This document shows, in pieces, positions 20 to 17,981 of a DNA stretch of 22,968 nucleotides. The notes beneath the pieces were generated by a model. That model ran no database searches and was not told the DNA's origin. It was given only the letters and a program-made list of their open reading frames with translations. Made by a program: the position numbers and the translations under genes. This DNA is from a virus (lineage: Duplodnaviria > Heunggongvirae > Uroviricota > Caudoviricetes), in the IMG/VR virus record IMGVR_UViG_2541047936_000003; one strand, 5' to 3'. Numbering within the stretch: position 1 is the stretch's first letter; each line of letters opens with the position of its first letter.

Positions 20-1315
20 TTAATTTTTCATTGCTTCGTTATGGGGCATGGTTGGGGCAAACTCGCTTAACTGTGTATTTAACAAAGCTACCTGTGCATT
101 ATTGTTTTCAGACATCCATTTTCCGTATACCTGAAATACCATTTGCGCATCTGCATGGCCCATCTGGTTTGCTATAAATGCCGGGTTAGCACCAGCTGTC
201 AGCGACCAGCAGGCATAAGTATGTCTCGACTGATATGATTTTCGATGGCGGAGTCCGGCACGTTTTATCGCTGCGTCCCACATCTGCCTTATTGAGTCAA
301 CGGTAAAATGGTCACCATAATTTTTTACTCTCGCTGACACTTCAGGTTGAAAAACAAAGGTGCATTTTTGTTTTTCTGTTCTGCCATACTCTCTGAGGTG
401 AACATCAATGATATGCTCTTTGCTCAGTCTCGTTAATGTCATCTGACTCCGGAGAGCGTCGATTGCTGGCTTAATAAGATGAATGACCCGATTGGTTCCC
501 GCCTGTGTTTTTGGTACCGTGAAACGGTCTTTTGCTAAATTTCTCCTGATCATCATTGTTCCATTTTTCAGATCTATGTCCTCCCATCCAAGTGCACACA
601 GCTCACCAGGGCGAACTCCAGTATAAACAGAAACACACCATAAATTTTTTGCTTGCTGATTTCTGCACGCATCGATAAGACGGATAAATTCTTCCCGCGA
701 AAGAGGATCCGGAATGGTTCTTGATTCCTTTAATGGCGAGATCCCCTTAAACGGATTATCTGCCAGGTAACCGTTATCAACACCAAACTGGAACACGGCG
801 TTAAGATTTGTCATGTAATTATTTACAGTTACAGCCGATCTCCCTGGTTGTGTAACAATATAGTTACTTTTGGGGATCTGGTATCCAGTCAGTAACTCTT
901 TACGAACCTCCAGTAATTTTTCTTTATTAATCGATGAGGCAAGATTTTTTTCACCGATTATGCTCAGGATATTTTTGATGACGGCACGGTATGTGTTGAG
1001 TGATGTTTTGGCGACTTCAGTTTCTTTCAGTGCCAGAAATTTTTCAGCCAGTTCTTTTATGGTTAAATCTTGTCGGGCCTCACCAAATTTTTCCAGATTG
1101 CGTGAGGAGGGAAACTGTTTTGCATAGTCGAAAACACCAGTTTTTATTGCGTAACAAACAGAGGAGCGTAGTTCACCTGCAACGCGCCTGTTTTTTGCTG
1201 TGTCAGGAACCCCCAGATTTTCCCTGACTCTTACGTCTTTATAAACAAACCAGATACGTAATTTCCCTCCATGGTTTTCCACGCCTGTCGGATATTTCAT
1301 TTCAACTTCTCTCAT
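20..1315 (-). CDS. phage tyrosine integrase (lambda-Int family site-specific recombinase)
   Basis: 431-aa ORF with a C-terminal catalytic region carrying a conserved Arg (VYTGVRPGE), an H-x-x-R box (SRHTYA) and a Tyr near the C-terminus (VYGKW); xis-like ORF directly upstream on the same strand. True start could be the second Met (MKYPTG) 15 nt downstream. Confidence 0.85.
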   Translation of the reverse strand: MREVEMKYPTGVENHGGKLRIWFVYKDVRVRENLGVPDTAKNRRVAGELRSSVCYAIKTGVFDYAKQFPSSRNLEKFGEARQDLTIKELAEKFLALKETEVAKTSLNTYRAVIKNILSIIGEKNLASSINKEKLLEVRKELLTGYQIPKSNYIVTQPGRSAVTVNNYMTNLNAVFQFGVDNGYLADNPFKGISPLKESRTIPDPLSREEFIRLIDACRNQQAKNLWCVSVYTGVRPGELCALGWEDIDLKNGTMMIRRNLAKDRFTVPKTQAGTNRVIHLIKPAIDALRSQMTLTRLSKEHIIDVHLREYGRTEKQKCTFVFQPEVSARVKNYGDHFTVDSIRQMWDAAIKRAGLRHRKSYQSRHTYACWSLTAGANPAFIANQMGHADAQMVFQVYGKWMSENNNAQVALLNTQLSEFAPTMPHNEAMKN

Positions 1316-1334
1316 TAGTTAGTGTGGCTTTTAG

Positions 1335-1586
1335 TCAAGTAAGATGACGTCTTGGTCTCGCTGATGCCTGGCGCTCAATCCAGCGATCAATTTCTTCCAG
1401 GTTGTAAAAGCATGGACTGTTATCCCATGGCATACCGTCATGAGCGACATGCTTATATTCCCTTCCTTCCATAAACGATTTTTCCCGGGCCTTTTTTAAC
1501 GTACCTTTTTTTATTCCTTTCAGCGCAATTAACTGCTCTTCGGATACCCATTTGCCGGGAGAGACAATCATGATTACTTCGCTCAT
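1335..1586 (-). CDS. excisionase-like small protein (putative Xis / recombination directionality factor)
   Basis: 83-aa basic ORF ending 20 nt upstream of the integrase start, the classic xis-int arrangement; no strong motif recognised. Confidence 0.45.
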   Translation of the reverse strand: MSEVIMIVSPGKWVSEEQLIALKGIKKGTLKKAREKSFMEGREYKHVAHDGMPWDNSPCFYNLEEIDRWIERQASARPRRHLT

Positions 1587-1658
1587 CGATTTCTTTATCT
1601 CTTACATCAGACGAGCGCCGGTTGCAGAATACCAGTCACAACCGGCGACAGTTGAACA

Positions 1659-2429
1659 TTAAGAATCAGCCTGACTCGGGATCAGTTTTTGCCAGATAAC
1701 TGAAACGTATTTTGCCTGGTAACGGGCGTCATCAAGTGCATTATGGCGCTCACCTTCGAATGGAATAGCCGTTCTGGCATCGAAGTCTATGGCTTTCCCC
1801 AGCTCAACGATTGTGCGTACATCGCGATCGTTGTAGTAACGCCACGGGCAGGGGATCCCCTGCCGTTCGTATGAACGGCGCAAAATCGTGTTGTCGAAGT
1901 TGGCTCCATTTCCCCAAACCTGAACAAAAAATTCACCGGAGTTTTCGTCGATAAATTCTCGCAATTGTAACAGTGCATCATCTAACGGGATTTCATCGGT
2001 CATAATGGCAGATTGCGCTTCGCGTGATTGCTTAAGCCACCATTTAATGGTGTCCCGATCAATGACTCCGCCAGCAGTTTCCAGATCGATAGTCTTACTA
2101 AATTCCGGTCCCATATCTCCGGTTTGCGGATCGAAAAATATTGCACCTATTGAGATGATCGGGGCATCAGGATTTTTTCCCATGGTTTCAAGGTCGATCA
2201 TTAGATGGTCACACGTCCTGCTGGTGGATGTGATTTCGTGATGACCGTTCACCTTAATTGGGTGATCTGCCGTCTCGCCAGTTTCATTATCGCTATTGTG
2301 ATGCTGATTGCCGCCAGTGTTCTCCTTGTGTGGATGTTCAGCGCCTTCCATTTCCTCCGGATCATCTTCCTGAACTTCAACCTGATACTCTTCATCGAAT
2401 GTTTCTTGGTATGTTGCGTCGCCCATCAC
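1659..2429 (-). CDS. DEDDh-type (DnaQ-like) 3'-5' exonuclease with acidic N-terminal extension
   Basis: Exo motifs in translation: Exo [10 protein letters not shown], Exo [14 protein letters not shown], Exo [16 protein letters not shown]; the first ~75 aa are Asp/Glu/His-rich and low-complexity. Confidence 0.7.
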
Positions 2430-2507
2430 CGCGCCACAATCAGGGCAGTTGCCGCCGCCGGTCTGTGAACCGCCCCGGGTTTCCTGGAGAGTGTTTTATC
2501 TGTGAAC

Positions 2508-3398
2508 TCAGGCTGCCAGATCATCGTTTCCGATGGAAGCATAATAAGCTTTTTCTGCTTCTGCCGGAGGAGTATGGCCCAGCCTTTCCAGCAATCGTCG
2601 ATTGTTATACCAGTCCACCCACGTGAGTGTGGCCAGTTCCACTTCTGCACGGTTTTTCCAGCTCTTACGGTGTATTACCTCCGCTTTGTAAAGACCATTG
2701 ATGCTCTCCGCCATCGCGTTGTCATACGAGTCGCCTGTACTTCCTGTTGATGCCAGTAATCCGGCTTCCTTAAGCCGCTGTGTGTAGGCCAGCGATACAT
2801 ACTGAGAACCTTTATCACTGTGATGGACCGTGCCGGACGGTCGACGGGCCCATAACGCCTGCTCCAGTGCATCCAGCACGAATGTCGTTTCCATGGACGA
2901 TGAGACCCGCCACCCCACGATGTATCCGGCAAACACATCAATGATGAACGCCACATAGACGAAGCCCCGCCATGTGCTGACGTAAGTAAAATCAGCCACC
3001 CACAGCTGGTCAGGTCGTTCTGCCACGAACTGACGGTTTACGCGGTCGCCTGCGGCAACGGCTTTCCGGCTGATGGTCGTACGGACCTTTTTACCCCGGA
3101 GAACACCGGCAAGTCCCATAACCGCCATGAGGCGCGCCACTGTACATCTGGCCACCCTGATTCCTTCCCGTAACAACTGACGCCAGACTTTACGCACACC
3201 GTACACCTGATGATTTTCATCGTATACGCGCTGTATCTCTCTCTTCAGCCAGTCATCGTGCTGCGCACGGGCACTGCGTTTATCCGGATGATGTCGCTGT
3301 TGCTGACAATGGTAATACGTTGACGGGGCAATATGCAGTTCGCTGCATACCGGTCCGACCCCGTACTGCTCACGCAGCTTATCCAGCAGTGGCATCAT
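2508..3398 (-). CDS. IS629 transposase OrfB (DDE / rve catalytic domain)
   Basis: 296-aa ORF immediately downstream of and overlapping OrfA in the -1 frame, the IS3-family layout; integrase-core-like sequence. Confidence 0.85.
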
Positions 3399-3721
3399 TT
3401 TTTCCAGAGGCGGTCGAACTCCGCCTTCGCAAAATAAGCGGAAGCCTGGCGAAGGATATCGTTACTGCGGCGCAGTTCACGATTTTCACGTTCCAGCTCT
3501 TTCAGACGCTGACGTTCAGCGCTGGTGAGCCCACCATCACCGCCCCCGGTATCCCGCTCATGCTGGCGAACCCAGACACGCAGAGTCTCCGGCGTACAGC
3601 CAATCTTTGGGGCAATGGAACAAATTGCCGCCCACTGTGAGTCATATTCATCCTGACTTTCCAGAACCATACGGACTGCCCGTTGACGGACTTCGGGGGA
3701 AAAACGAGTATTTTTAGTCAT
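3395..3721 (-). CDS. IS629 transposase OrfA (HTH DNA-binding; leucine-zipper region)
   Basis: 108-aa ORF starting [23 protein letters not shown], recognised as IS629/IS1203 OrfA; an A6 run (minus strand, 3398-3403) at the OrfA/OrfB overlap fits a programmed -1 frameshift site. Confidence 0.85.
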
Positions 3722-3838
3722 CCTGTTTACCTCTTTCTCAGGAAGTTTAGTCTCCAGGATTCCCGGGGCGGTTCAGAAGAGCGAAGTTATGCAGCGCATA
3801 CTGGCTTTCTATCAGGGTAATTTTCAGGACGTGGCGCA

Positions 3839-4285
3839 GTGAGTGCACCGGCAACCATTCTTGATATGTGCTGTGGCAGCCGCATGTTCTGGTTCGATAA
3901 GTCTGACGAACGGGCGATATTCAGCGATATCAGAAAAGAAGGATACACATTACGCAATGGGAGACGCTTGATTATCAGCCCTGACATTATCGCAGATTTT
4001 CGTGCATTATCATTTGCAGACGCATCTTTTTCGATGGTTGTATTAGACCCTCCGCATCTTGAGAGTGTTGGTGATAACGCCTGGATGGGAAAGAAATATG
4101 GACGGCTGAATAAAGATGCCTGGCGTGATGATTCGCGACAGAGATTTAAAGAAGCCTTTCGGGTGTTGAGGCCGCACGGCGTTCTGATTTTTTAATGGAA
4201 TGAAACGCAAATACCGGTAAGCCAGATTCTGGCACTGACAGACAGAAAACCTGTTATCTGTCAACGAACAGGGAAAAAACGATAA
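3839..4285 (+). pseudogene. SAM-dependent (DNA) methyltransferase-like gene interrupted by an in-frame TAA
   Basis: Translation has a motif-I-like DMCCGS and a motif-IV-like VVLDPPHL (DPP[YFWH] class); in-frame TAA at 4193-4195 followed by 29 more open codons to TAA at 4283-4285; start is GTG 3839 or ATG 3866. Confidence 0.45.
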
Positions 4286-4457
4286 AACCCACTGGATTAT
4301 TTTTATGAAAGAGGCATCCAGTGAGTAGATTCGTAAGGCTACAGATACGTATATCTGAATAATTAAATTCAGTTCTGTAAATAAAATTTAATCCTTAACC
4401 GGATGGATTTCTGCACCCTCAGAACATCAGGAGGCCGCCCGAAAGGGCGGTAGTGAA

Positions 4458-4640
4458 ATGCGAAAGTTCAAAATTATTATTGAAACGGGAATAGCTGGTG
4501 GAGATTTTGAGGATGTATTCGAAGTGGACGATGACGCAACACCTGAGGAAATTCATGACGGAGCATAAGAAATTTTCTTTAACTACTGCAATTACTCATA
4601 CCACGAAATAAAAGACGATGAGGAAGAACAAAGTGGCTGA
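4458..4640 (+). pseudogene. hypothetical small acidic protein, in-frame TAA at 4566
   Basis: ATG 4458 sits behind a GC hairpin with a GAAA loop; 36 codons, TAA at 4566-4568, then 23 open codons to TGA at 4638-4640. Confidence 0.3.
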
Positions 4641-4692
4641 TTTTTGTTCAGCTAAATATAACATCAGTTTTGAAGAGCGGGATGAACTATTA

Positions 4693-4809
4693 ATGGACTA
4701 TGGTGAGTTACGCGGTGGAAGTGCTGCTGATGTCGAATCCTAGCGTGATGACTATGAAGCGGGAAAAACTCCGGTCGAAGCATATTGTGATGAGTGGGGC
4801 GATGAATGA
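4693..4809 (+). pseudogene. hypothetical small protein, in-frame TAG at 4741
   Basis: 16 codons, TAG at 4741-4743, then 21 open codons to TGA at 4807-4809; its stop overlaps the next ORF's start (ATGA), suggesting translational coupling. Confidence 0.25.
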
Positions 4810-5093
4810 GCGAGATTAATTATCAGGAAGGGCATGAAACGGCGGGGCAAGCAAAACCAGTGGCATGGCGATATCGCTACGTGAAAAAAGGCGTTACGGA
4901 CTTTCAGGGGAAGTAGTGGTCTGGTGACTGGAAATATGTACCGAAAAAAGAGGATTGTAACGACAGGCCGAACTATCAAATTCAGGCCTTATTCACTGCC
5001 TCACCAGTCCCAGTTACATCAGAAGAACTGGTTAAAGCTGTGCACTTTTATGAACAACTAAAACGCGAAAATCCACCAACATCCGGCAACTAG
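4806..5093 (+). pseudogene. hypothetical protein, in-frame TAG at 4914
   Basis: 36 codons (MSEINYQEGHE...), TAG at 4914-4916, then 58 open codons containing no ATG before the stop at 5091-5093, which argues the downstream stretch is a continuation and not a separate gene. Confidence 0.35.
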
Positions 5094-5347
5094 ATTAATG
5101 GATTAACTATGTCGGTTAAACGACCAGCCAACTGAAAAAGCGGAAACCTGATTACAGGTTGCCAGATAAGGCAATGAGCTACCTGGCGCGGAACGGACTG
5201 ATAAGTATGGGGAATGTTTTACGATGAACCTTTAGACTAAAGAGTTTGTAACGCTATGTAAGTGATTTTTTCTGGTTTAGATATTTATATGTCCGGCCAA
5301 ATTGAGGTGTGTTTAAATGTAATTGCACATTGATTGTAGGAGGAATA

Positions 5348-5527
5348 ATGAAAAACGCATTGCAGTTTTTGTTTGTTGCGTTCTGGTTGTTCGCATCATG
5401 TATGCCCATCATCTTCACAGCAAGGTATATGGAAAAAGTTGATGTTTTGATATTAATATTTGGATATATAAATGCCCTTTTTTTAGGGGTGTTCATGGCG
5501 GTCATGTGCATTGAATACTGGCGGTAA
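5348..5527 (+). CDS. small hydrophobic membrane protein (59 aa, two predicted TM helices)
   Basis: Strong SD GTAGGAGGA at 5336-5344 placed 3-4 nt before ATG 5348; translation MKNALQFLFVAFWLFASCMPIIF...LILIFGYINALFLGVFMAVMCIEYWR is two hydrophobic segments. Confidence 0.5.
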   Translation: MKNALQFLFVAFWLFASCMPIIFTARYMEKVDVLILIFGYINALFLGVFMAVMCIEYWR

Positions 5528-5861
5528 ATACAGCGAACTCCATTGGTTTAGTTGGATATTTACTGTGCTGGACAAAAACGGTTTGCGGGGAAATCTTAGT
5601 TAAGTAGAATGACTGCGGGTGCTTGAGGCTATCTGCCTCGGGCATGGACACCAACGGCAGATAGAGAAAAGCCCCAGTTAACATTACGCGTCCTGCAAGA
5701 CGCTTAACATTAATCTGAGGCCAATTTCATGCTAGACACATGTAGGTTAGCCTCTTAGGTGCCGAAAGGCACGGAGAAGCAGGCTATTGTTAACACCAAG
5801 CTGTAATGTCCCCTTTGAACCATTCTAAAATGTCCCCAGACAATTCTCTGGGGGATTTTTC

Positions 5862-7175
5862 ATGATCAAAGAGACTGTTACGATGAGTCATAAGGAACTC
5901 CACCGACTTCAGATTATTCAGGAACAAGCTGCGGCACGCATTGGCATTTCTATTCGGCAGGTTAAACGTCTGGTGCAACGGTATAGAAATGAAGGGCCTT
6001 CTGGTCTGGTTTCCCACCGACGTGGAAAGCGTCCTAATAATTCCTTTTCTACTGAATTCAGAGCAACAGTAATTTCACTCCTCAAAGGCCGTTACGCTGA
6101 TTTTGGACCTACGTTTGCGTGCGAAAAATTGCGCGAGATACACGGTTTATCTTTATCCGTTGAAACTCTCAGAAAGTGGATGATAGAAGAGGGGTTATGG
6201 CGTGAACGCCGTCGTAAAATTGCCCGTATATATCAACGCCGCATGCGACGACCATCTTACGGTGAACTGATCCAGATTGATGGCTCACCTCATGACTGGT
6301 TTGAAAATCGAGGCCCCAGATGTACACTGATCGTTTTCATTGATGATGCCACCAGTGCGTTGATGGCGTTGCGTTTTGTGCCTGCTGAAACAACCCGGGC
6401 TTACATGGAAACCCTCCGGGGTTACCTTAATGATCATGGCGTACCGCTCGCTCTCTACTCTGATAGACACAGTATATTCAGGGTAAATAACCCAGAGCGG
6501 GAAGGTGAGCTGACCCAGTTCACTCGTGCGATAAAGACACTGGGCATCGAGCCAATCCATGCCAACAGCCCGCAGGCAAAAGGGCGGGTAGAGCGCGCCA
6601 ATCAGACACTACAGGACAGGCTGGTCAAAGAAATGCGGCTTCAGAATATCAGTGATATTGAAACAGCAAATGCATGGTTGCCGACCTTTATTGAAGCCTA
6701 TAACAACCGGTTCGCTACGTCGCCTCGTACTACTGATAATGCTCATCTTGATGTGCACCATTCTGAAGAGGAACTGGGTTATATCTTCAGCCTACAGGCG
6801 AAGCGCGTTCTGTCTAAAAATCTCACTTTCCAGTACAAAAGCAGTGCGTTTCAGGTACGCAGTGAGGGCCGGGGATATCGACTTAGGCATTCGGTTGTTA
6901 CTGTATGCGAGAACTTTGACGGTGAAATTAACGTTCTGTATGACGGGAAAGCGCTGGGCTGGGAAAAGTATGTTGATGGCCCGGAGCCTATACCACTGGA
7001 TGATGAAAAGAGTGTCCATGAACGAGTGGATAATGCCCGTATTGATTTACGCTCAAAATACTATGTTAAACCTAAAGCTGACCATCCCTGGCTTACGCGC
7101 CGAACGCAAAGTCATCAGCAAGTTAAGCCCCCGAAGTTACCTAAAAAGAAGCCTGATCCCGATAAAAAAGATTGA
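5862..7175 (+). CDS. DDE-type transposase/integrase (rve core with N-terminal HTH; IS481/ISNCY-like)
   Basis: 437-aa ORF; N-terminal HTH-like segment (ARIGISIRQVKRLV), catalytic-core-like segments (IQIDGSPHDWF, LYSDRHSIF, RVERANQTLQD) and a Lys/Pro-rich C-terminal tail. Element ends not identified. Confidence 0.8.
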   Translation: MIKETVTMSHKELHRLQIIQEQAAARIGISIRQVKRLVQRYRNEGPSGLVSHRRGKRPNNSFSTEFRATVISLLKGRYADFGPTFACEKLREIHGLSLSVETLRKWMIEEGLWRERRRKIARIYQRRMRRPSYGELIQIDGSPHDWFENRGPRCTLIVFIDDATSALMALRFVPAETTRAYMETLRGYLNDHGVPLALYSDRHSIFRVNNPEREGELTQFTRAIKTLGIEPIHANSPQAKGRVERANQTLQDRLVKEMRLQNISDIETANAWLPTFIEAYNNRFATSPRTTDNAHLDVHHSEEELGYIFSLQAKRVLSKNLTFQYKSSAFQVRSEGRGYRLRHSVVTVCENFDGEINVLYDGKALGWEKYVDGPEPIPLDDEKSVHERVDNARIDLRSKYYVKPKADHPWLTRRTQSHQQVKPPKLPKKKPDPDKKD

Positions 7176-7611
7176 AACCAAGATCGATTCGGTTGAGTGC
7201 ATATCCATTCATAGGGTAGATTCTTAAGTCGCGTTTCTGGTGTTCATTTTCGGGTGGTTTGTTACTTGTTTTACCGGGGATATGCCAGAAACGCGCTGAG
7301 TCAGTCTGGGCGGTGCGCGTAATGAGGCGTTATGGTAAATAGCCTATGCTAATGTCCGCTAAGAGCAAGAAGCGGAAGTTGGCAGTTTTGTGGACTGTCC
7401 CCACAAAAGTGACTACAGAAATAGTTGCAATTCATAATTGATCATGGGTTGTCAGTTAAACTCGTGGCGATTTAAATAGACTAATTGGGAGTGCGTCCAT
7501 TACTTATATCTTGTAATGTTAACTATCAGAAATGATACAAAGATAATATGTCTTTAAAGAAAAGGCTGATGGCGAAAAGTGGCCCGATGAGGGCCACAAT
7601 ACGGCTGTCAC

Positions 7612-7944
7612 TTAGACGTAAATATCAATGGTGCCAGCGGTATTTGTATCGTCTTTTTTCTCTTCTTTTTTATCAGGCTGAACTGTCGCGTCTTCATTCT
7701 TTTTCTCTGCCTGCTGCCTTAACAACTGCTCCAGTTGAGCCCAGAGGCTTTCAATTTGCTTCTGTACCAATGCAGCCATTTCTTTTTTCTGCTGTGTCGT
7801 CATCCCCTCTTCCGATGAGATTTTCCCAAGCTTTTCAGTCAGCACCTGAATTTGTCTTGTGATTTTGGCTATTTCTGATGTTCCTTCCGGGGCGGAGTTG
7901 TTTGAAATAACGGTTGAGGTATTTCCCTGAATTGTGACAGACAT
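7612..7944 (-). CDS. flxA: FlxA-like protein (flagellar-regulon member of Qin prophage)
   Basis: 110-aa ORF recognised as FlxA; good SD (AAAGGAGAAATCT-ATG on the minus strand); sigma-28 promoter immediately upstream. Confidence 0.85.
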   Translation of the reverse strand: MSVTIQGNTSTVISNNSAPEGTSEIAKITRQIQVLTEKLGKISSEEGMTTQQKKEMAALVQKQIESLWAQLEQLLRQQAEKKNEDATVQPDKKEEKKDDTNTAGTIDIYV

Positions 7945-7967
7945 AGATTTCTCCTTTTAAAAAAGCA

Positions 7968-7994
7968 CTATCGGCATGCACAAAAAAATCTTTA
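7968..7994 (-). promoter_or_regulatory. sigma-28 (FliA) class-3 promoter for flxA
   Basis: Minus strand reads TAAAGATT-N11-GCCGATAG against consensus TAAAGTTT-N11-GCCGATAA, about 24 nt upstream of the flxA ATG. Confidence 0.55.
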
Positions 7995-8146
7995 ATCGTA
8001 TTTCTTGTGTCATTAATTGTTTGATGTTCAGATTGTTTTCCTCGCGGGCTGGCGCGCCTCAGAAAGTAAAGCTTGTTGACAGGGGTAAACGTTCGGCAAT
8101 AATTTTCTGCCGCATGCGGGTGTTGCATAAAACGTGTTACGTTCCT

Positions 8147-8452
8147 TTATCGACAGGTCAGGTCACCGCTCACCCGCCGACGAGAAAGCAACACTGACAT
8201 GCTAAAGCAAAAAATAGATGAATAAGTTGAGTTGTGCATATGTAGCCTGACCGTCACAAAGTATATGGTGTCTGTACCAGTAAGATGATGGCCGGACTCT
8301 TTAAAAACGAGCTGACCTGCACAATACAGGATGGACTTAGCAATGGCTGCTCCTGGCACAAAGCGGACAGTGATCACTGTTCTTACGACTACTTTCTGAC
8401 TTCCTTCGTGACTTGCCCTAAGCATGTTGTAGTGCGATACTTGTAATGACAT
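8147..8452 (-). CDS. ydfV: YdfV-like uncharacterised prophage protein
   Basis: 101-aa ORF lying between flxA and relB as in K-12 Qin; no functional motif recognised. Confidence 0.5.
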   Translation of the reverse strand: MSLQVSHYNMLRASHEGSQKVVVRTVITVRFVPGAAIAKSILYCAGQLVFKESGHHLTGTDTIYFVTVRLHMHNSTYSSIFCFSMSVLLSRRRVSGDLTCR

Positions 8453-8464
8453 TTGTAATTACAA
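8441..8464 (+). promoter_or_regulatory. relBE operator (relO) palindromes in the promoter region
   Basis: TTGTAATGACATTTGTAATTACAA, including the perfect palindrome TTGTAATTACAA, ending 12 nt upstream of the relB ATG. Confidence 0.6.
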
Positions 8465-8476
8465 GAGGTGTAAGAC

Positions 8477-8716
8477 ATGGGTAGCATTAACCTGCGTATT
8501 GACGATGAACTTAAAGCGCGTTCTTACGCCGCGCTTGAAAAAATGGGTGTAACTCCTTCTGAAGCGCTTCGTCTCATGCTCGAGTATATCGCTGACAATG
8601 AACGCTTGCCGTTCAAACAGACACTCCTGAGTGATGAAGATGCTGAACTTGTGGAGATAGTGAAAGAACGGCTTCGTAATCCTAAGCCAGTACGTGTGAC
8701 GCTGGATGAACTCTGA
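8477..8716 (+). CDS. relB: RelB antitoxin (type II TA)
   Basis: 79-aa ORF MGSINLRIDDELKARSYA...; recognised RelB; its stop overlaps the relE start. Confidence 0.95.
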   Translation: MGSINLRIDDELKARSYAALEKMGVTPSEALRLMLEYIADNERLPFKQTLLSDEDAELVEIVKERLRNPKPVRVTLDEL

Positions 8717-9003
8717 TGGCGTATTTTCTGGATTTTGACGAGCGGGCACTAAAGGAATGGCGAAAGCTGGGCTCGACGGTACGTGAACAGTTGAAAAAGA
8801 AGCTGGTTGAAGTACTTGAGTCACCCCGGATTGAAGCAAACAAGCTCCGTGGTATGCCTGATTGTTACAAGATTAAGCTCCGGTCTTCAGGCTATCGCCT
8901 TGTATACCAGGTTATAGACGAGAAAGTTGTCGTTTTCGTGATTTCTGTTGGGAAAAGAGAACGCTCGGAAGTATATAGCGAGGCGGTCAAACGCATTCTC
9001 TGA
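8716..9003 (+). CDS. relE: RelE mRNA-interferase toxin (type II TA)
   Basis: 95-aa ORF MAYFLDFDERALKEWRKLGSTVREQLKKKL...; recognised RelE; start overlaps the relB stop (ATGA-type coupling). Confidence 0.95.
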   Translation: MAYFLDFDERALKEWRKLGSTVREQLKKKLVEVLESPRIEANKLRGMPDCYKIKLRSSGYRLVYQVIDEKVVVFVISVGKRERSEVYSEAVKRIL

Positions 9004-9074
9004 ACCAAAGCATGACATCTCTGTTTCGCACCGAAGGTGACACTTCTGCTTTGCGTTGACAGGAGAAGCAGGCT

Positions 9075-9230
9075 ATGAAGCAGCAAAAGGCGATGTTAAT
9101 CGCCCTGATCGTCATCTGTTTAACCGTCATAGTGACGGCACTGGTAACGAGGAAAGACCTCTGCGAGGTACGAATCCGAACCGGCCAGACGGAGGTCGCT
9201 GTCTTCACAGCTTACGAACCTGAGGAGTAA
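9075..9230 (+). CDS. hokD: HokD (RelF) Hok-family membrane toxin
   Basis: 51-aa ORF MKQQKAMLIALIVICLTVIVTALVTRKDLCEVRIRTGQTEVAVFTAYEPEE, translated by hand (below the ORF-track cutoff); SD AGGAGAAGCAGGCT-ATG. Confidence 0.85.
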   Translation: MKQQKAMLIALIVICLTVIVTALVTRKDLCEVRIRTGQTEVAVFTAYEPEE

Positions 9231-9298
9231 GAGACCCGGCGGGGGAGAAATCCCTCGCCACCTCTGATGTGGCAGGCATCCTCAACGCACCCGCACTT

Positions 9299-9325
9299 AA
9301 CCCGCTTCGGCGGGTTTTTGTTTTT
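9299..9325 (+). terminator. rho-independent terminator after relBE-hokD
   Basis: AACCCGC-TTCG-GCGGGTT hairpin followed by TTTTGTTTTTATTTT. Confidence 0.55.
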
Positions 9326-9446
9326 ATTTTCAACGCGTTTGAAGTTCTGGACGGTGCCGGAATAGAATCAAAAATACTTAAGTAGCGCGCAGGGATAAGA
9401 GGGATGGTCCCTTAAAGGGGAGAGCTAATTATCCGGAAGGATTCTG

Positions 9447-9698
9447 ATGATGAACATCGAAGAACTGCGTAAAATTTTTTGTGAAGATGGCCTCTATGCT
9501 GTGTGCGTTGAAAATGGAAATCTTGTTAGTCATTACCGCATTATGTGTTTGCGAAAGAATGGGGCTGCGTTAATTAATTTTGTGGATGCTCGGGTCACGG
9601 ACGGATTTATCTTGCGCGAAGGTGAGTTTGTCACTTCATTACAGGCATTGAAAGAGATCGGAATAAAAGCTGGCTTTTCTGCTTTTTCAGGAGAATAA
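9447..9698 (+). CDS. rem: Rem-like small prophage protein
   Basis: 83-aa ORF (MMNIEELRKIF...) at the position of rem, between hokD and ydfU. Confidence 0.65.
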   Translation: MMNIEELRKIFCEDGLYAVCVENGNLVSHYRIMCLRKNGAALINFVDARVTDGFILREGEFVTSLQALKEIGIKAGFSAFSGE

Positions 9699-9764
9699 AC
9701 TCATCTACAATCTTGCGCGGGGCTGAACTCCCGCTGAGTAACACCGTGCCACCGGAGAAAACCG

Positions 9765-10043
9765 ATGGCACGCAACGCAAAATATTACAATTCTGATAAT
9801 TCGCCCGTTCTTGCCTGCACGCACGGGCGGTATTCTCACGCATTCAAGTCTGAATGGTTCCAGCACCCTCCATGCACTGCAGAACAGGCCGAATGGCTGA
9901 TTCATTCTTACCGCAGGCGCGGGTTCGAGGTTAAGAAAGCTCTCAGTCTCGACTATCGGCACTGGATAATCTCTGTCAGGCTGCCTTATTCCGAACGCCC
10001 ACCACGTGCGTCCCGCACTTTCCAGCAACGGATCTGGAGGTAA
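9765..10043 (+). CDS. hypothetical protein (92 aa)
   Basis: ATG preceded by GGAGAAAACCG (SD-like); its 3' end overlaps the longest possible ydfU start by 38 nt; no family recognised. Confidence 0.3.
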   Translation: MARNAKYYNSDNSPVLACTHGRYSHAFKSEWFQHPPCTAEQAEWLIHSYRRRGFEVKKALSLDYRHWIISVRLPYSERPPRASRTFQQRIWR

Positions 10044-11094
10044 CGTGCGGGTATTACTTAGACCTGTTCTGGTGCCTGAGCTTGGGCTGGTGGTCCTTAA
10101 GCCGGGCCGTGAATCCATACAGATATTTCATAATCCTCGAGTGCTGGTGGAACCGGAACCAAAAAGCATGCGTAATCTGCCATCCGGAGTCGTTCCTGCC
10201 GTTCGCCAGCCGCTGGCGGAAGACAAAACATTGCTGCCGTTTTTTAGTAACGAACGGGTGATTCGTGCTGCTGGCGGCGTTGGCGCATTGTCCGACTGGC
10301 TATTACGTCATGTTACATCCTGCCAGTGGCCTAATGGCGATTACCATCACACTGAAACAGTCATTCACCGTTATGGTACCGGCGCAATGGTGTTGTGCTG
10401 GCACTGCGACAACCAACTGCGTGACCAGACATCGGAATCACTGGAGCTGCTTGCTCAACAAAATCTGACAGCATGGGTGATTGACGTCATCCGTCACGCA
10501 ATAAGCGGTACGCAGGAGCGGGAATTATCTTTGGCTGAATTATCCTGGTGGGCGGTCTGCAATCAGGTGGTGGATGCACTACCTGAGGCTGTATCGCGTC
10601 GTTCGCTGGGATTACCAGCGGAAAAAATCTGCTCGGTGTACCGCGAAAGCGACATCGTACCGGGAGAGCAGACCGCCACCAGCATATTGAAACAACGCAC
10701 AAAAAATCTTGCACCGTTGCCTTACGCCCACCAGCAACAAAAATCACCACAGGAAAAGACGGTGGTAAGCATCACCGTTGATCCAGAGTCTCCGGAATCT
10801 TTCATGAAGCTGCCTAAACGTCGCCGCTGGGTTAAGGAGAAATACACACGTTGGGTTAAGACACAGCCGTGTGCTTGCTGCGGTATGCCAGCCGACGATC
10901 CGCATCATCTGATTGGTCACGGGCAGGGCGGAATGGGAACAAAAGCACATGATCTCTTTGTGTTGCCTTTGTGCAGAAAGCATCACAACGAGCTGCATAC
11001 GGATACAGTGGCATTTGAAGATAAGTATGGCTCCCAACTGGAGCTGATATTTCGTTTTATCGATCGCGCGCTGGCAATTGGCGTACTGGCGTAA
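10006..11094 (+). CDS. ydfU: YdfU-like DUF968 protein with HNH-like Cys/His cluster
   Basis: C-terminal CACCGMPADDPHHLIGHGQGG...LPLCRKHHNELH resembles an HNH/zinc-finger nuclease motif; start uncertain (GTG 10006 is the longest option). Confidence 0.65.
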   Translation: MRPALSSNGSGGNVRVLLRPVLVPELGLVVLKPGRESIQIFHNPRVLVEPEPKSMRNLPSGVVPAVRQPLAEDKTLLPFFSNERVIRAAGGVGALSDWLLRHVTSCQWPNGDYHHTETVIHRYGTGAMVLCWHCDNQLRDQTSESLELLAQQNLTAWVIDVIRHAISGTQERELSLAELSWWAVCNQVVDALPEAVSRRSLGLPAEKICSVYRESDIVPGEQTATSILKQRTKNLAPLPYAHQQQKSPQEKTVVSITVDPESPESFMKLPKRRRWVKEKYTRWVKTQPCACCGMPADDPHHLIGHGQGGMGTKAHDLFVLPLCRKHHNELHTDTVAFEDKYGSQLELIFRFIDRALAIGVLA

Positions 11095-11107
11095 GTGGAG
11101 AACGAGC

Positions 11108-11860
11108 ATGAACCTTGAAGCCTTACCAAAATATTACTCCCCAAAATCTCCAAAATTGAGCGATGACGCTCCAGCGACAGGCACCGGTTGTTTAACAATT
11201 ACGGATGTAATGGCAGCGCAGGGGATGGTGCAGTCGAAAGCACCACTTGGGTTGGCCTTATTTCTGGCAAAAGTTGGTGTTCAGGACCCTCAGTTTGCGA
11301 TTGAAGGCCTGCTAAATTACGCGATGGCACTGGATAACCCGACATTGAACAAATTGAGTGAAGAAATCCGGTTACAGATTATTCCTTACCTCGTGAGTTT
11401 TGCCTTTGCTGATTACTCCAGGTCTGCGGCAAGTAAGGCTCGCTGTGAGCATTGTTCAGGTACGGGATTTTATAATGTATTGCGCGAAGTGGTGAAACAC
11501 TACAGACGCGGGGAATCTGTAATCAAGGAAGAATGGGTGAAGGAACTATGTCAGCATTGCCATGGTAAGGGCGAAGCCAGCACAGCGTGCAGAGGGTGTA
11601 AGGGTAAAGGGATTGTTCTGGATGAAAAAAGAACCCGGTTTCATGGCGTACCGGTATATAAGATTTGTGGGCGTTGTAATGGAAACCGGTTTAGTCGTTT
11701 ACCGACCACGCTGGCACGACGTCATGTCCAGAAGCTGGTACCAGACCTGACCGATTATCAGTGGTATAAGGGGTATGCGGACGTCATTGGTAAACTGGTA
11801 ACAAAGTGCTGGCAGGAAGAAGCATACGCGGAAGCGCAATTGAGGAAGGTGACGAGATAA
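11108..11860 (+). CDS. quuQ: Q-family late-gene antiterminator
   Basis: 250 aa from ATG 11108 (SD GGAGAACGAGC); several CxxC/CxxH clusters (CEHCSGTG, CQHCHGKG, CRGCKGKG, CGRCNG) typical of a Q zinc-binding domain. Confidence 0.8.
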   Translation: MNLEALPKYYSPKSPKLSDDAPATGTGCLTITDVMAAQGMVQSKAPLGLALFLAKVGVQDPQFAIEGLLNYAMALDNPTLNKLSEEIRLQIIPYLVSFAFADYSRSAASKARCEHCSGTGFYNVLREVVKHYRRGESVIKEEWVKELCQHCHGKGEASTACRGCKGKGIVLDEKRTRFHGVPVYKICGRCNGNRFSRLPTTLARRHVQKLVPDLTDYQWYKGYADVIGKLVTKCWQEEAYAEAQLRKVTR

Positions 11861-11901
11861 ATGATTTTTGCTGAAGATGGCGACATGATGTTTGCATTTT
11901 T

Positions 11902-11930
11902 CAAAAAATATGGATAAAATTTTTTCAACG
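11902..11930 (+). promoter_or_regulatory. candidate late promoter (pR'-like) downstream of Q
   Basis: TTGCAT-N17-TAAAAT located 40-70 nt after the quuQ stop and about 50 nt before an intrinsic terminator, the lambdoid pR'/tR' layout. Confidence 0.3.
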
Positions 11931-11976
11931 ATGGGCTTTGTATACCCGACGTTAAGAAAAAGTAGAAAACCCGCTG

Positions 11977-12003
11977 ATGAGCGGGTTTTGTGCTTTAAAT
12001 GGG
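11977..12003 (+). terminator. intrinsic terminator (tR'-like)
   Basis: AACCCGCT-GATG-AGCGGGTT hairpin followed by a T-rich tract. Confidence 0.5.
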
Positions 12004-12281
12004 GCAATGGTAATGTTGAATCTCATCCCGGGACTCATGTCTGTTAACTTATTATTTAGCTGGTGACTTGGTTATTTGCCTGATGTTTAAAATGTTTTCT
12101 TCCAGTACAATGTCCCTAAACACAATGAGTCTGCTTATTATATTATTAGCAGAGCTATTACGGCCAAAGTACAGCATAAGCTTTTAAAGCCAATCAACCA
12201 GTCATCAAGACAGACGGGGTTATTCATAAAAACTCTCCATGTGTGATCCGATGGGGCCTGAAATTAAAGCTTTAATATAGC

Positions 12282-12494
12282 TCATGAAAGGTAAACATTG
12301 GCAGCTGAAGGGCCACGCAGACCATTTATCCGGCAAAATTCCACGCGTAATCCGGTGGTAATTTCTTCTGCATCGCGGAGATTGAGCGCTGAAACATGAA
12401 GCTGGACATCGATACGACCATCGGATGGGGTGATAAGACCCTTGCCGCTTTTGCCGTCAAAGGTTTTGACAATTCCTGTCATTTTACGGGACAA
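12282..12494 (-). CDS. cspF: cold-shock-domain protein CspF-like
   Basis: 70-aa [29 protein letters not shown]... with the CSD fold signature; divergent from cspB. Confidence 0.85.
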
Positions 12495-12794
12495 AAAAAT
12501 TCCTTAATACTGATAACTTGGCGCACTATACACACGTTCCTGAAGAAAGCTATAGTTTTTTGATGGGGTTGAAGATGGCTGGATGTCTAAAATAAACATT
12601 GCTTCATATGTTCAACTATGCGTTAATGATTGCGTCGGTTTGAAGAACAGACGATATACGAAGTAGTTTACTAAAGCAGTTCTCATTTCAGGTGTTATTC
12701 ACTTATTCCTTCTTTGAGTCTCTCCAATTAAGTACGAAGTCGTTTCTGTTATGCAAACCATTTATGCCGAAAGGCTCAAGTTAAGGAATGTAGA

Positions 12795-13010
12795 ATGTCA
12801 AATAAAATGACTGGTTTAGTAAAATGGTTTAACGCTGATAAAGGTTTCGGCTTTATTTCTCCTGTTGATGGTAGTAAAGATGTGTTTGTGCATTTTTCTG
12901 CGATTCAGAATGATAATTATCGAACCTTATTTGAAGGTCAAAAGGTTACCTTCTCTATAGAGAGTGGTGCTAAAGGTCCTGCAGCAGCAAATGTCATCAT
13001 TACTGATTAA
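12795..13010 (+). CDS. cspB: cold-shock protein CspB-like
   Basis: 71-aa [41 protein letters not shown]... with RNP1/RNP2 motifs (KGFGFI, VFVHF). Confidence 0.9.
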
Positions 13011-13291
13011 AATTCATCGCTCGTCTGTATACGATAACGAAGAAGGCTGATGCCTGAGTAGAGATACGGACAGAGTAGTGAATATTGGATCTCTTTAATA
13101 AAAAGTAAGGAGGTCCAATACATGAAACAATGGCTAGCATATTTGGCAAAATCTTAATCAGGAAAAGTATGCTAACCATTGTGGTGAAGTGCAGGTTTGC
13201 TGCATGAATAGTTTTACAGCAGAAGCTAACTGCTGGCATGGCAAAACAAAGTGCGTAAGTGGATGACTCCCACAAAAAGCACCACAATCTC

Positions 13292-13318
13292 AAACCCGCT
13301 CAGGCGGGTTTTTTATTA
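13292..13318 (+). terminator. intrinsic terminator
   Basis: AACCCGC-TCAG-GCGGGTT hairpin followed by TTTTTTATTAT. Confidence 0.5.
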
Positions 13319-13373
13319 TCTGCTTTAAATATATTATTAAAATATAAAAAATACTTGTTACTAATAAAATCAA

Positions 13374-13544
13374 TCAGGCTACAGCTTTAAGATTTGTCTG
13401 GAATACTTTGTTGCAATGAGGGCAGATCAAAAGGGCACCTTTTTGTACTCTTGAAAAACTGTGTTCTGACTCTTGGGTGCAGTTTGGGCAGGAACATTTA
13501 ACGAGATAATTACGGCGTGATTTTGAGTTTTTACGTTCTGACAT
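13374..13544 (-). CDS. small zinc-ribbon protein (56 aa)
   Basis: CSCPNC...CPHC (two CxxC pairs); SD AGGAAAAG 4-5 nt upstream of ATG 13544; the ORF track's longer form starts at 13595. Confidence 0.45.
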   Translation of the reverse strand: MSERKNSKSRRNYLVKCSCPNCTQESEHSFSRVQKGALLICPHCNKVFQTNLKAVA

Positions 13545-13763
13545 AGGCTTTTCCTGTATAAATGGCCGTATACAGTACACTAAATATGAAAACATTTCTC
13601 GTATTATTATTTTATATATGACTTTCTTTCAAAATAATTACCCACATTTTTAATGTGTATGTTTTTTTAGCGCCGTTGAGAACAACGTGTGCTGTCAAAA
13701 CTACCCCGTAGACTCCGATCTTTTCAAACATATTGCACCATCCGTGTACATCGGGGTGAGGAT

Positions 13764-13979
13764 ATGAAATCAATGGATAAGTTAACAACAGGTGTTGCCT
13801 ATGGCACATCGGCGGGTAATGCTGGTTTCTGGGCATTGCAGTTACTCGATAAAGTAACTCCGTCACAGTGGGCTGCAATCGGTGTGCTGGGTAGCCTGGT
13901 TTTTGGCCTGCTGACGTATCTGACAAATCTTTATTTCAAGATTAAAGAAGACAGGCGTAAGGCTGCGAGAGGAGAGTAA
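13764..13979 (+). CDS. essQ: holin (lambdoid class II, dual-start MKSM)
   Basis: 71-aa [31 protein letters not shown]...[17 protein letters not shown] with two TM segments and a charged C-terminus; first gene of the lysis cassette. Confidence 0.85.
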
Positions 13980-13983
13980 TCCA

Positions 13984-14291
13984 ATGACTCAAGACTATGA
14001 ACTGGTTGTGAAAGGAGTCCGTAATTTTGAGAATAAAGTTACGGTAACTGTAGCCTTACAGGACAAAGAACGCTTTGACGGTGAAATTTTTGACCTGGAT
14101 GTCGCCATGGACCGTGTTGAAGGAGCTGCGCTGGAGTTTTATGAGGCAGCAGCCAGAAGGAGCGTCCGGCAAGTCTTCCTGGAAGTAGCAGAAAAATTGT
14201 CAGAAAAAGTTGAGTCTTATCTGCAGCATCAGTACTCCTTTAAGATTGAAAATCCTGCCAATAAGCACGAGCGTCCTCATCATAAATATCT

Positions 14292-14295
<4 letters not shown>
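13984..14295 (+). CDS. ydfR: YdfR-like protein (DUF1327)
   Basis: 103-aa ORF between holin and endolysin; tight spacing to neighbours. Confidence 0.65.
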
Positions 14296-15319
<1,024 letters not shown>

Positions 15320-15681
15320 GGTAATATTAAATCGGAACATTTACATCGCGGAATGTAAAATTTAAATAAAAAGGACTCTTCCATGAGCCAAAATTCCTGA
15401 AATCTTAAGGGTAAGATAAAAGGTCTTAATCAGAATGACACGTTTTATTAATAAATAAAGCTATTCTTTCATTGCTGTGTTTTTCTTTACAAAAGTAATC
15501 CTTGCTATGGGTGGTTAATCATGCGTTAATGGTGTTCTGGTTTGTTACAAATTTATCTGAAGCAGTCATTGTTATAATTTTATTATTTGTACCTCTTGAG
15601 ATTTCCTTGTTGGTTTTTCTCTCTGATATTTTTTTTCGGACCATTCTGCCCAAGGGCTAATTTCTTCAAAAGGTAATAATT

Positions 15682-15894
15682 ATGTCTAACAAAATGACTG
15701 GTTTAGTGAAATGGTTTAACCCTGAAAAAGGTTTTGGTTTCATCACGCCGAAAGATGGCAGCAAAGATGTGTTTGTCCATTTCTCAGCAATTCAGAGCAA
15801 CGATTTCAAAACATTAACTGAGAATCAGGAAGTTGAATTTGGTATTGAGAACGGACCTAAAGGTCCTGCCGCTGTTCATGTAGTGGCGCTTTGA
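15682..15894 (+). CDS. cspI: cold-shock protein CspI-like
   Basis: 70-aa [41 protein letters not shown]...; long AT-rich 5' leader upstream. Confidence 0.9.
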
Positions 15895-16098
15895 GGTAGA
15901 CAATATTACAAACCATATTCACTTTAGATGCCCGTGTTGTCATGGTTCCCAGTATAGAACATCATCTTTTGATGTTTCTGACATGAATCCTTTCGGGGCA
16001 AAATGTATCTTTTGTAAATCAATGATGATTACATTTGATAATATTTCACAATACTTAAATGCCAGCCGTCTGTCGTTGGATTTAAAAAAGTGAAAATG

Positions 16099-16124
16099 AA
16101 GGCTCCTTCGGGAGCTTTTTTGCT
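16099..16124 (+). terminator. intrinsic terminator
   Basis: GCTCC-TTCG-GGAGC hairpin followed by TTTTTTGCTT. Confidence 0.5.
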
Positions 16125-16566
16125 TGGTGTCTATTCGATGGATACTCACATACTACGGTAACATCATGAAAAAAATCATAGTTTTTTTTAACTCTGAACC
16201 AGCAGTGGTAGTGCCAGCGATGACTGGAGTTAACACCATCATGCGTGAATATCCAAATGGCGAAAAACACACCTTACTGTAATGGCCGCAGGGTTTCCAT
16301 CTCTGACCGGAGATCATATAGTCATTTATGTAGCCGCGGATCGACATGTTACTTCAGAAGAAATTCTGGAAGCAGCAATAAGGCTCTTGAGTTGATTTGA
16401 TGCTATTGCATTGATAATTCAGGAAAATTCTCTTTGTCTGTTTGTGTAAAATTTAGACTATCGTATGTTGATTATTGCGATGTTTCATCTTATCTTTTAC
16501 ACGTTTGCACCATATAATCGACTTACTGTGTAACTGGAAAGTCATAACAGACTAAAAGAGGAAATG

Positions 16567-16740
16567 ATGAATATTGAAAACTTAAAAACAAAAGCAGAAG
16601 CAGATATTTCTGAATATATAACAAAAAAAATTATTGAACTTAAGAAAAAGACCGGGAAAGAAGTTACCAGTATTCAGTTTACCGCACGGGAAAAAATGAC
16701 GGGTCTTGAAAGCTATGATGTCAAGATTAATTTAATCTGA
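16567..16740 (+). CDS. gnsB: GnsB-like (Gns family) small protein
   Basis: 57 aa MNIENLKTKAEADISEYI...TAREKMTGLESYDVKINLI; SD AGAGGA upstream. Confidence 0.75.
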   Translation: MNIENLKTKAEADISEYITKKIIELKKKTGKEVTSIQFTAREKMTGLESYDVKINLI

Positions 16741-16891
16741 TGTATTCAATAATAAAATTTATCCATAAACCTCGTTTTTACGGGGTTTTGTTATATTTGA
16801 ATGGTTCCGAATATCTAAATCACAATTGTTGATGGTTTTTATTAAACCAATGCAGTCCGGCTCAGGAGTGAGAGAAGCCGGACGTTATGGT

Positions 16892-17302: not shown

Positions 17303-17359
17303 AGATAAACCTTCCATGTGATATGAGGGGGCGTAGTCTGCACGATTATCTAAATTGCT

Positions 17360-17593: not shown

Positions 17594-17779
17594 GAGGTTG
17601 CCCCGTATTCAGTGTCGCTGATTTGTATTGTCTGAAGTTGTTTTTACGTTAAGTTGATGCAGATCAATTAATACGATACCTGCGTCATAATTGATTATTT
17701 GACGTGGTTTGATGGCCTCCACGCACGTTGTGATATGTAGATGATAATCATTATCACTTTACGGGTCCTTTCCGGTGAT

Positions 17780-17960: not shown

Positions 17961-17981
17961 TTTTTGTCCGTGGAATGAACA

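Follow-up and report, generated by a model that had tools for sequence, protein, structure and literature searches.

A deletion scar, decayed backbone, and a putative relBE-carrying IS1202-family transposon at hokD in a Qin-type prophage

The window analyzed here is a 22,968-nucleotide stretch of Caudoviricetes DNA (IMG/VR record IMGVR_UViG_2541047936_000003) that belongs to a Qin-type lambdoid prophage. It raises the question of what fills positions 3776 to 7540, between the int-xis-exo module and flxA, where an immunity region would be expected. An initial annotation placed IS629, a methyltransferase-like gene, small acidic open reading frames (ORFs), a small membrane protein, and a second transposase there, and every one of these items lies where it was put. 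The interval was proposed to be an accessory island between two insertion sequence (IS) elements, suited to carry a defense or exclusion function. Our analysis makes it very likely that the interval is not an inserted island but a patchwork from three separate events: an IS629-associated deletion (event 1), decay of ordinary backbone (event 2), and insertion of a transposon at hokD (event 3).

Of these, the third has the widest reach. A hok-targeting transposon that carries a toxin-antitoxin pair, and that includes the classical relBE locus, is well supported by the comparisons described below and is apparently undescribed. The non-subscription literature searched contained no account of relBE as the cargo of a transposon or of insertions aimed at hok, and a prior description is possible.

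A transposon-like unit between the hok leader and hokD

Event 3 was the insertion of a 3,274-bp IS1202-family transposon between the Shine-Dalgarno sequence and the ATG of a hok gene, duplicating 15 bp and splitting the leader of the hok mRNA from hokD. The features of this region are as follows.

5617 to 5787, plus strand: orphaned hokD mRNA leader (mok/sok regulatory region), from RF01794 and intact relatives
5773 to 5787, unstranded: left copy of the 15-bp target-site duplication, GGAGAAGCAGGCTAT; intact loci have a single copy
5788 to 5815, plus strand: left terminal inverted repeat (IRL), TGTTAACACCAAGCTGTAATGTCCCCTT, matching the IRL of a 1,449-bp relative from Hahella
5862 to 7175, plus strand: DDE transposase of 437 amino acids (aa), IS1202 family (ISNCY, ISEsa1-like), from NF033594 and Pfam
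7230 to 7340, plus strand: cer-like XerC/XerD site, with its core at 7312 to 7340 and about 80 bp of accessory-like sequence ahead of it
7381 to 8348, minus strand: variable cargo, here flxA (7612 to 7944) and most of the ydfV ORF; relatives carry other cargo at this position
8349 to 9061, plus strand: conserved right arm, with the relBE promoter region, relB, relE, and the right inverted repeat (IRR), from comparison with relatives
8477 to 8716 and 8716 to 9003: relB and relE, from the ORF list and the annotation of relatives
about 9034 to 9061: IRR, ending TTGCGTTGACA
9062 to 9076, unstranded: right copy of the 15-bp target-site duplication, a perfect repeat of the left copy

Evidence that a hok locus was split comes from both sides of this unit. 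The Rfam model RF01794 (sok) matched positions 5617 to 5788 on the plus strand over its entire length (105.2 bits, model positions 1 to 157 of 157). Because the consensus of this model ends with the hok Shine-Dalgarno sequence and AUG, the match corresponds to the sense strand of the hok mRNA leader, to part of which Sok is antisense. At the position of the hok AUG the window reads AUU. Homologous E. coli leaders match the window only up to 5787 and are followed by a hok gene, and in two Qin-like prophages (L003 and L004) the leader is directly joined to a hokD whose protein is identical to that of the window ORF at 9075 to 9230. In the window, the leader, which has two point differences from intact relatives, and the hokD ORF are not contiguous and lie 3.3 kb apart. 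A T follows the left copy of the duplication, leaving no hok start there, and the right copy rebuilds the Shine-Dalgarno sequence and the AT of the hokD ATG. Both the leader and the fact that the second transposase belongs to a larger transposon, reaching 9061 and thus past the interval first described, had been overlooked in the initial annotation.

This arrangement would free hokD from mok/Sok control and place it 58 bp behind relE, in agreement with the cotranscription of relB, relE, and relF that Bech in 1985 and Gotfredsen and Gerdes in 1998 are said to have reported. A hairpin followed by a T run at 5833 to 5854, just ahead of the transposase ATG, may insulate the transposase gene from outside transcription. 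A promoter scan of 5200 to 5900 returned no consensus sigma-70 site; the reading of hok and sok promoters in the leader is an analogy with the plasmid R1 sequence and is not claimed as shown.

The sequences around hokD contained two further details. The frame from the ATG at 5729 stops at a TAG within 5729 to 5760, which a C-to-G change relative to L003 and L004 created, and in L004 the frame from the equivalent ATG leads in register to the hokD ATG; in hokD-type loci, mok may be arranged differently than on plasmid R1. A subthreshold Rfam match to isrK (25 bits, E = 0.024) at 9239 to 9320, just 3' of hokD, is probably the 3' terminator and fold-back region of the hok mRNA and not a separate small RNA (sRNA).

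Within the unit, the order is IRL, transposase, cer-like Xer site, flxA, ydfV, relBE, and IRR. It starts with TGTTAACACCAAGCTGTAATGTCCCC and finishes with ...GGTGACACTTCTGCTTTGCGTTGACA, which are imperfect inverted repeats beginning TGT (TGTTAACACC... at one end and, as the reverse complement of the other, TGTCAACGCA...). A right repeat was sought first near 7400 to 7440, where nothing convincing was found, and was located at 9061. The transposase matched NCBIfam model NF033594 (ISNCY) with 456 bits, covering positions 7 to 365 of 368, and contained the Pfam domains HTH_32, HTH_29, and rve_3. Its homologues have 446 aa, with an intact ORF of this length in L005, L006, L007, L009, L010, L019, and L020, and the window copy is without 9 aa (ESINRHITQ), an in-frame loss just before the helix-turn-helix (HTH). 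The label of incomplete transposase was rejected, as the ORF spans the whole ISNCY model and equals the 446-aa homologues except for this deletion. In the deposited complete genome of Escherichia phage PhiR42_1 (L088), the transposase (about 9024 to 10337) shares this 9-aa deletion and is also cut short by a stop at codon 129, which represents further decay in some lineages.

The right arm encodes RelB (79 aa) and RelE (95 aa) in ORFs that overlap by one base. Relatives that are 98.9 to 100% identical in relBE DNA are annotated with RelB WP_000534858.1 and RelE WP_000323025.1, as in K-12, and relBE probably stabilizes whatever replicon bears the transposon. The neighboring ydfV ORF (8147 to 8452, minus strand) lies across the point, at about 8349, where variable cargo and the conserved relBE arm meet. 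Its first 33 codons are also present in elements of Enterobacter and Kluyvera, where they run on into unrelated sequence to give a 64-aa ORF; ydfV may be a chimeric or spurious ORF overlapping the relBE promoter region.

Copies, cargo, and target sites

Three locations of the 3.3-kb unit allow its limits to be compared. It occurs in Qin hokD with the duplication GGAGAAGCAGGCTAT, in NCTC9699 between nlpD and rpoS with the duplication GGGAAATCCGTAAAC, and on pSTEC2018_166-c ahead of a plasmid hok gene with the duplication TGGAGGGGCTGCGATG. Identical units with their own duplications at independent sites indicate that the transposon moves as one unit. Target duplications of 13 to 16 bp were present at at least 10 independent sites. 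The simple relative from Hahella (1,449 bp, 62% protein identity), which is present in at least seven copies with 15- to 16-bp duplications, has IRL and IRR motifs that match both ends of the transposon.

Relatives were collected as loci found via the transposase in other Enterobacteriaceae. The left arm (5788 to about 7370, comprising IRL, transposase, and about 200 bp more) is about 90% identical in the common plasmid form, and the right arm (8349 to 9061) is 98 to 99% identical among relatives. In Escherichia and Shigella, the middle consists of flxA and ydfV; elements from Enterobacter, Citrobacter, and Kluyvera encode a cytochrome b561 there, together with a cation-diffusion-facilitator transporter, and some have secondary insertions of IS110 or IS30. 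A Scandinavium element is more distant. Its left arm has about 70% DNA identity, the last 18 nt of the IRR recur unchanged 4.27 kb away, and the element is flanked by a 15-bp duplication. Its cargo encodes GrpB, a hexapeptide acetyltransferase, and, adjoining the IRR in place of relBE, a tacA/GNAT-toxin pair, so that the place next to the IRR is again held by a toxin-antitoxin module, here with toxins of another family. Unit length is 3,274 bp here and 4.3 to 7.3 kb in relatives. A second copy of the left flank was found downstream only in L040 among the other relatives, and the remaining loci probably end before the IRR. Of 5,426 complete E. coli genomes, 687 had the junction of leader and IRL. 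Matches to the unit or its arms were found on 889 PLSDB plasmids, most of which are conjugative and come from Klebsiella and Enterobacter. In L024 (Leclercia sp. EMC7; 2627 to 7540), a second and more distant element of the family, about 71% identical, directly follows the duplication past the first IRR, and the pair looks like a nested or tandem insertion at one hok site.

Directly 3' of the transposase gene is the candidate Xer core, GGTGCGCGTAA-TGAGGCG-TTATGGTAAAT, with 11-bp arms of XerC and then XerD type on either side of a 7-bp spacer, which we take to be cer-like from its resemblance to reference cer and dif sequences. The approximately 80 bp upstream share 75 to 83% identity with small plasmids of E. 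coli, among them the Rop-encoding L008, and this homology ends at the end of the XerD arm. The site is kept at the same position in left arms that are 70 to 98% identical. Its arm-spacer-arm layout is common to ColE1 cer and other plasmid multimer-resolution sites and to the dif modules of Acinetobacter plasmids; in contrast to these, the window site lies inside a transposon, behind its transposase gene. Speculatively, it might resolve cointegrates or multimers, or mediate exchange of cargo. L023, L024, and L037 have the cer-like region (the counterpart of window positions 7231/7312 to 7366) twice, the second time 1 to 2 kb to the right of the first, and some cargo segments may be bracketed by two Xer sites, like dif modules.

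Target choice was surveyed across all loci with an exact IRL, including 60 prophage contigs. Fifteen of the 20 distinct left flanks fell in the window between a hok Shine-Dalgarno sequence and its ATG. The targeted hok genes comprised about 10 sequences, among them hokD-like, two MK(M/L)PNQP types, R1-hok-like (MPQRTF), and hokE-like (MLTKYAL) genes, and one insertion was inverted in the same 15-bp hok window. Since the elements are 90 to 99% identical while the hok genes are highly diverged, the hok insertions appear to be independent of each other. A preference of the transposon for the translation-initiation region of hok-family genes is supported by these flanks.

The relationship to described elements is one of shared machinery and different contents. 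Siguier et al. (bioRxiv 10.1101/2022.12.17.520857) describe an ISTde1-type subgroup of IS1202 with TGT ends and 15- to 17-bp repeats, and report passenger genes in 5 of 166 IS1202 members, with no toxin-antitoxin pair. The unit is like the IS1202 family in its single approximately 446-aa DDE transposase with an N-terminal HTH, its TGT ends, and its 13- to 16-bp duplications. Typical members are 1.3 to 2.0 kb long and encode a transposase only, whereas the unit is 3.3 to 7.3 kb long and includes a toxin-antitoxin pair, an Xer site, and exchangeable cargo; on the basis of its length and passenger genes it is classed as a transporter IS or unit transposon. It also differs from the ISAba32 subgroup, which prefers Xer sites, in having hok start regions as its target.

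The IS629 junction and the decayed backbone

The left part of the interval has a separate history, for which the following features were used.

2466 to 3775, minus strand: IS629-like element of the IS3 family, 1,310 bp, from the ORF list, the ALIL pseudoknot, and flank comparison
3776 to 3842, plus strand: DUF977 remnant (last 67 bp), from DUF977 at 7645 to 8067 of the cq9 locus (L002) and the coordinate map
3839 to 4328, plus strand: orphan phage DNA methyltransferase pseudogene (ORF 3839 to 4195), from phrog_954, PADLOC, and comparison with an intact enzyme
4458 to 4640, plus strand: DUF7167/phrog_1997 pseudogene (PF23768, 3e-13), with a stop at codon 37; PGAP pseudogene
4806 to 5227, plus strand: phrog_660-related pseudogene (8.8e-29, profile positions 34 to 118 of 193), with internal stops and a frameshift; PGAP pseudogene
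5309 to 5527, plus strand: 72-aa hydrophobic ORF of unproven status, in the ORF list only and not called by PGAP

The first of these elements has orfA at 3395 to 3721 and orfB at 2508 to 3398, both on the minus strand, an ALIL frameshift pseudoknot at 3324 to 3440 (Rfam, 121 bits), and inverted repeats identical in their first 14 nt; base 3776 is the first after the element. From its length of 1,310 bp, we take it to be IS629. It is flanked by CTG on the left and GAA on the right, so there is no 3-bp target duplication. Strain Z1323CEC0003 (L001) has a simple IS629 insertion with the same right-hand junction and a GAA duplication, and the mismatched flanks in the window therefore imply that its single copy joins two formerly separate insertion sites. 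Flanks joined in this way are the mark either of recombination between two copies of the IS or of an adjacent deletion that the IS mediated.

The size of the loss could be read from cq9. Window positions 436 to 2465 correspond to 1 to 2030 of the cq9 locus at 100% identity, and 3776 to 15600 correspond to 8001 to 19825 at 99.98% identity. On this coordinate map, IS629 stands in for exactly 5,970 bp, which contained most of the exonuclease gene, ydfD, dicB, ydfCBA, dicA, dicC, ydaT, the replication gene, and most of DUF977. The complete order in cq9 is int, xis, a 2.5-kb exonuclease gene, ydfD, dicB, ydfC, ydfB, ydfA, dicA, dicC, ydaT, a replication-type gene, DUF977, the methyltransferase, a DUF7167 pseudogene, a further pseudogene, the ISNCY transposase, ydfW, flxA, ydfV, relB, relE, hokD, and rem. 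PhiR42_1, which comes from ECOR13, has the full arrangement, including the 3776-to-5787 block. By this comparison, the immunity region was deleted, not replaced. Event 1 was an IS629-associated deletion that begins within the recE-like exonuclease gene and stops shortly before the end of DUF977; it also removed the dicF region, and early promoters for the downstream block would have been lost with it. The reported absences agree with this, as the ORF list of the window contains no dicA, dicC, or dicB, and Rfam DicF gave no match at gathering thresholds in the whole window or at E of 1 or less in 3700 to 9400.

Event 2 concerns positions 3776 to 5600, which are ordinary post-replication, nin-like backbone that had already decayed. 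The methyltransferase belongs to a family of widespread orphan phage enzymes (phrog_954, 5.8e-72; PADLOC MTase_II and oMTase; 254 matching phage records by tblastn). An intact 160-aa Klebsiella phage enzyme is 82% identical to the window methyltransferase, which is split across two frames by a TAA (4193 to 4195) replacing Lys119 and a +1 frameshift near 4272 (about codon 145); it keeps a DPPH motif, yet it is not a full-length (about 160 aa) enzyme. The small acidic ORFs at 4458 to 4743 are the DUF7167 pseudogene. The 72-aa ORF had no family match in Pfam, NCBIfam, PHROGs, or PADLOC and is present in only 3 E. coli phages. It is 99 to 100% conserved in L002, L003, and L088, where the surrounding DNA is equally conserved, and the PhiR42_1 annotation at this site uses the opposite strand. 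As a side observation, strain TUM12368 (L004) has a 484-aa gene at 4486 to 5940, between DUF977 and hok, without a Pfam or PADLOC match; it is the sole candidate for unknown cargo seen at this variable position, where L007 has nothing.

Comparison with K-12 places these events in context. K-12 Qin and the window have flxA, ydfV, relB, relE, hokD, rem, ydfU, and the antiterminator gene in one order, and the encoded proteins are identical. K-12 Qin, which runs from intQ by way of dicB, dicF, ydfCBA, dicA, and dicC to ydfX and ydfW, keeps the immunity region that the window has lost. In turn, its own loss starts within ydaT (ydfX) and extends to window position 6990, comprising the replication gene, DUF977, and the methyltransferase block as well as the hok leader, IRL, and 1.2 kb of the transposase, which the window keeps. 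The K-12 order (L150, 4223 to 4685) is dicC, then ydfX, which is the N-terminal part of ydaT, then ydfW from window position 6991 on; ydfW is the last 49 codons of the IS1202-family transposase (window 7026 to 7175), and the ydfX-ydfW junction was made by a K-12-specific deletion. Aligned in this way, K-12 Qin and the window prophage are separate, complementary deletion derivatives of a cq9- or PhiR42_1-type prophage. The K-12 hokD has reportedly been inactivated by a major genetic rearrangement. The HokD ORF of the window is identical to it; the full-length leader is kept in the window, whereas K-12 has lost it entirely. The rearrangement identified in the window is a transposon with a clean 15-bp duplication between leader and ORF.

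Elsewhere in the window, Rfam matches included cspA-type thermoregulator 5' untranslated regions (UTRs) at 12634 to 13026 and 15536 to 15921 (159 and 113 bits), the first of which corresponds in position to an annotated cspB in cq9, and the sRNA IS009 at 19429 to 19627 (221 bits).

Alternative readings and implications

A reading of the whole interval as an acquired island, in which sequence between two IS elements replaced the immunity region and carries an unknown defense or exclusion function, has some features in its favor. The DUF977-to-hok interval varies among Qin-like prophages, as the 484-aa gene in L004 and the empty position in L007 illustrate; GC content dips to 36 to 40% around 4000 to 5600; and the methyltransferase matches PADLOC MTase models. 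This variability stands, as do the mosaic nature of the interval and its flanking and occupation by mobile elements. Synteny refutes the rest, since the block is collinear and 99.98% identical with prophages that keep the immunity region on its left. At least 80% of window positions 3700 to 7600 was covered in 412 of 5,426 complete E. coli genomes, with the block common to these loci, and 3776 to 5787 is annotated identically in cq9 and PhiR42_1. What had been called the least backbone-like part of the window is therefore the normal downstream neighbor of the replication genes, a result of the kind that the initial annotation had itself named as counting against its proposal, and no island took the place of an immunity region that lay to the left and was lost with the 5,970 bp. 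Nor do the two IS elements mark island boundaries, as they are of different families and reflect unrelated events.

The idea of a defense island was likewise rejected at the level of genes. Profile searches of every ORF in 3776 to 5600 against Pfam, NCBIfam, PHROGs, and PADLOC returned only the broken methyltransferase, DUF7167, and phrog_660. All three recognizable genes are pseudogenes, and there were no further defense matches in PADLOC, Pfam, or NCBIfam. PADLOC gave MTase_II/oMTase on the methyltransferase pseudogene only, with no match for the other ORFs, RelB, RelE, or HokD. The proposal of accessory cargo held in part, in that a toxin-antitoxin-bearing transposon and a hok/sok remnant reach into the interval, and failed for an uncharacterized defense gene, none of which was found. 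An acquired island is thus very improbable. The initial observation is confirmed and its interpretation largely refuted, with a deletion scar and decayed backbone in place of a cargo island. A different alternative concerns the extent of the mobile element, which could be only a 1.6-kb ISEsa1-like IS (5788 to about 7370) that produced 3.3-kb units by using a surrogate right end in the manner of ISEcp1, dragging relBE along. Cargo does vary between copies. In addition, the ISfinder entry for ISEsa1, as cited in PMC10132070, has a length of 1,609 bp, inverted repeats matching at 15/22, and no target duplication; the length equals that of the conserved left arm, whose homology ends at 7366 to 7380. 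However, no copy examined had a target duplication around the short form, and Harmer and Hall (PMC10132070) likewise found none; there is no inverted repeat at about 7370, and the outer IRR keeps both conserved repeat domains of the simple relative and is identical over 18 nt between elements with 70%-identical left arms and unrelated right arms. We regard a short element as unlikely and suspect that the ISfinder entry describes the left arm only, because its length is that of the left arm and no repeat or duplication was found at that boundary. The hok association could also be a matter of ancestry, with one old hok insertion spread by homologous recombination between plasmid and prophage hok loci. 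Most prophage copies do have the same hokD duplication, and hok loci are abundant on plasmids and prophages (bioRxiv 10.1101/2025.08.07.668861). Common descent is nevertheless improbable: the duplicated sequence changes with each hok gene (hokD-like, R1-hok-like, hokE-like, MKMPNQP-type) among elements that are 90 to 99% identical to one another, the duplication around every complete copy is perfect and repeats the sequence of that site, and the insertion in opposite orientation uses the same 15-bp window.

Several points weigh against mobility of the full 5788-to-9061 unit and its preference for hok. Movement of the unit is deduced from sequence comparison. The window transposase, 9 aa short beside the HTH, may be inactive, and PGAP labels it incomplete; the label may stem from the reference protein used by PGAP. 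Roles for the Xer site and the Sok promoter derive from resemblance to R1 and ColE1 sequences. The ISEsa1 limits cited from ISfinder conflict with 5788 to 9061 unless their right end is the junction of left arm and cargo. Five of the 20 sites are outside hok genes, in sequences with no clear consensus, and one insertion may be the ancestor of many of the copies at the hokD site of Qin-like prophages.

For the interval as first described, the outcome is ordinary: a deletion scar and decayed prophage backbone without a hidden defense gene. The larger reading is offered tentatively. These elements may form an unrecognized class of IS1202 unit transposons that home to the hok Shine-Dalgarno/ATG region, disable the resident hok/sok system, and substitute their own toxin-antitoxin pair, with XerCD resolving cointegrates or swapping cargo. 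If so, the hok loci that are enriched on plasmids and prophages would serve as safe landing sites, the K-12 relBE-hokD (relF) operon, ydfW, and ydfV would be by-products of one insertion, and ISEsa1 in ISfinder (1,609 bp, no duplication) would be the left arm only, offering a reason for its missing target duplication. The fusion of the classic relBE operon to a hok gene without mok/sok control is explained by the arrival of relBE on a transposon at the hokD start codon. Three K-12 y-genes can be reread, ydfW as a transposase tail, ydfX as the head of ydaT, and ydfV as a junction of cargo and right arm. Together, these comparisons point to a widespread family of transposons that combine a toxin-antitoxin pair with an Xer site and have an apparent site preference for another toxin-antitoxin locus.

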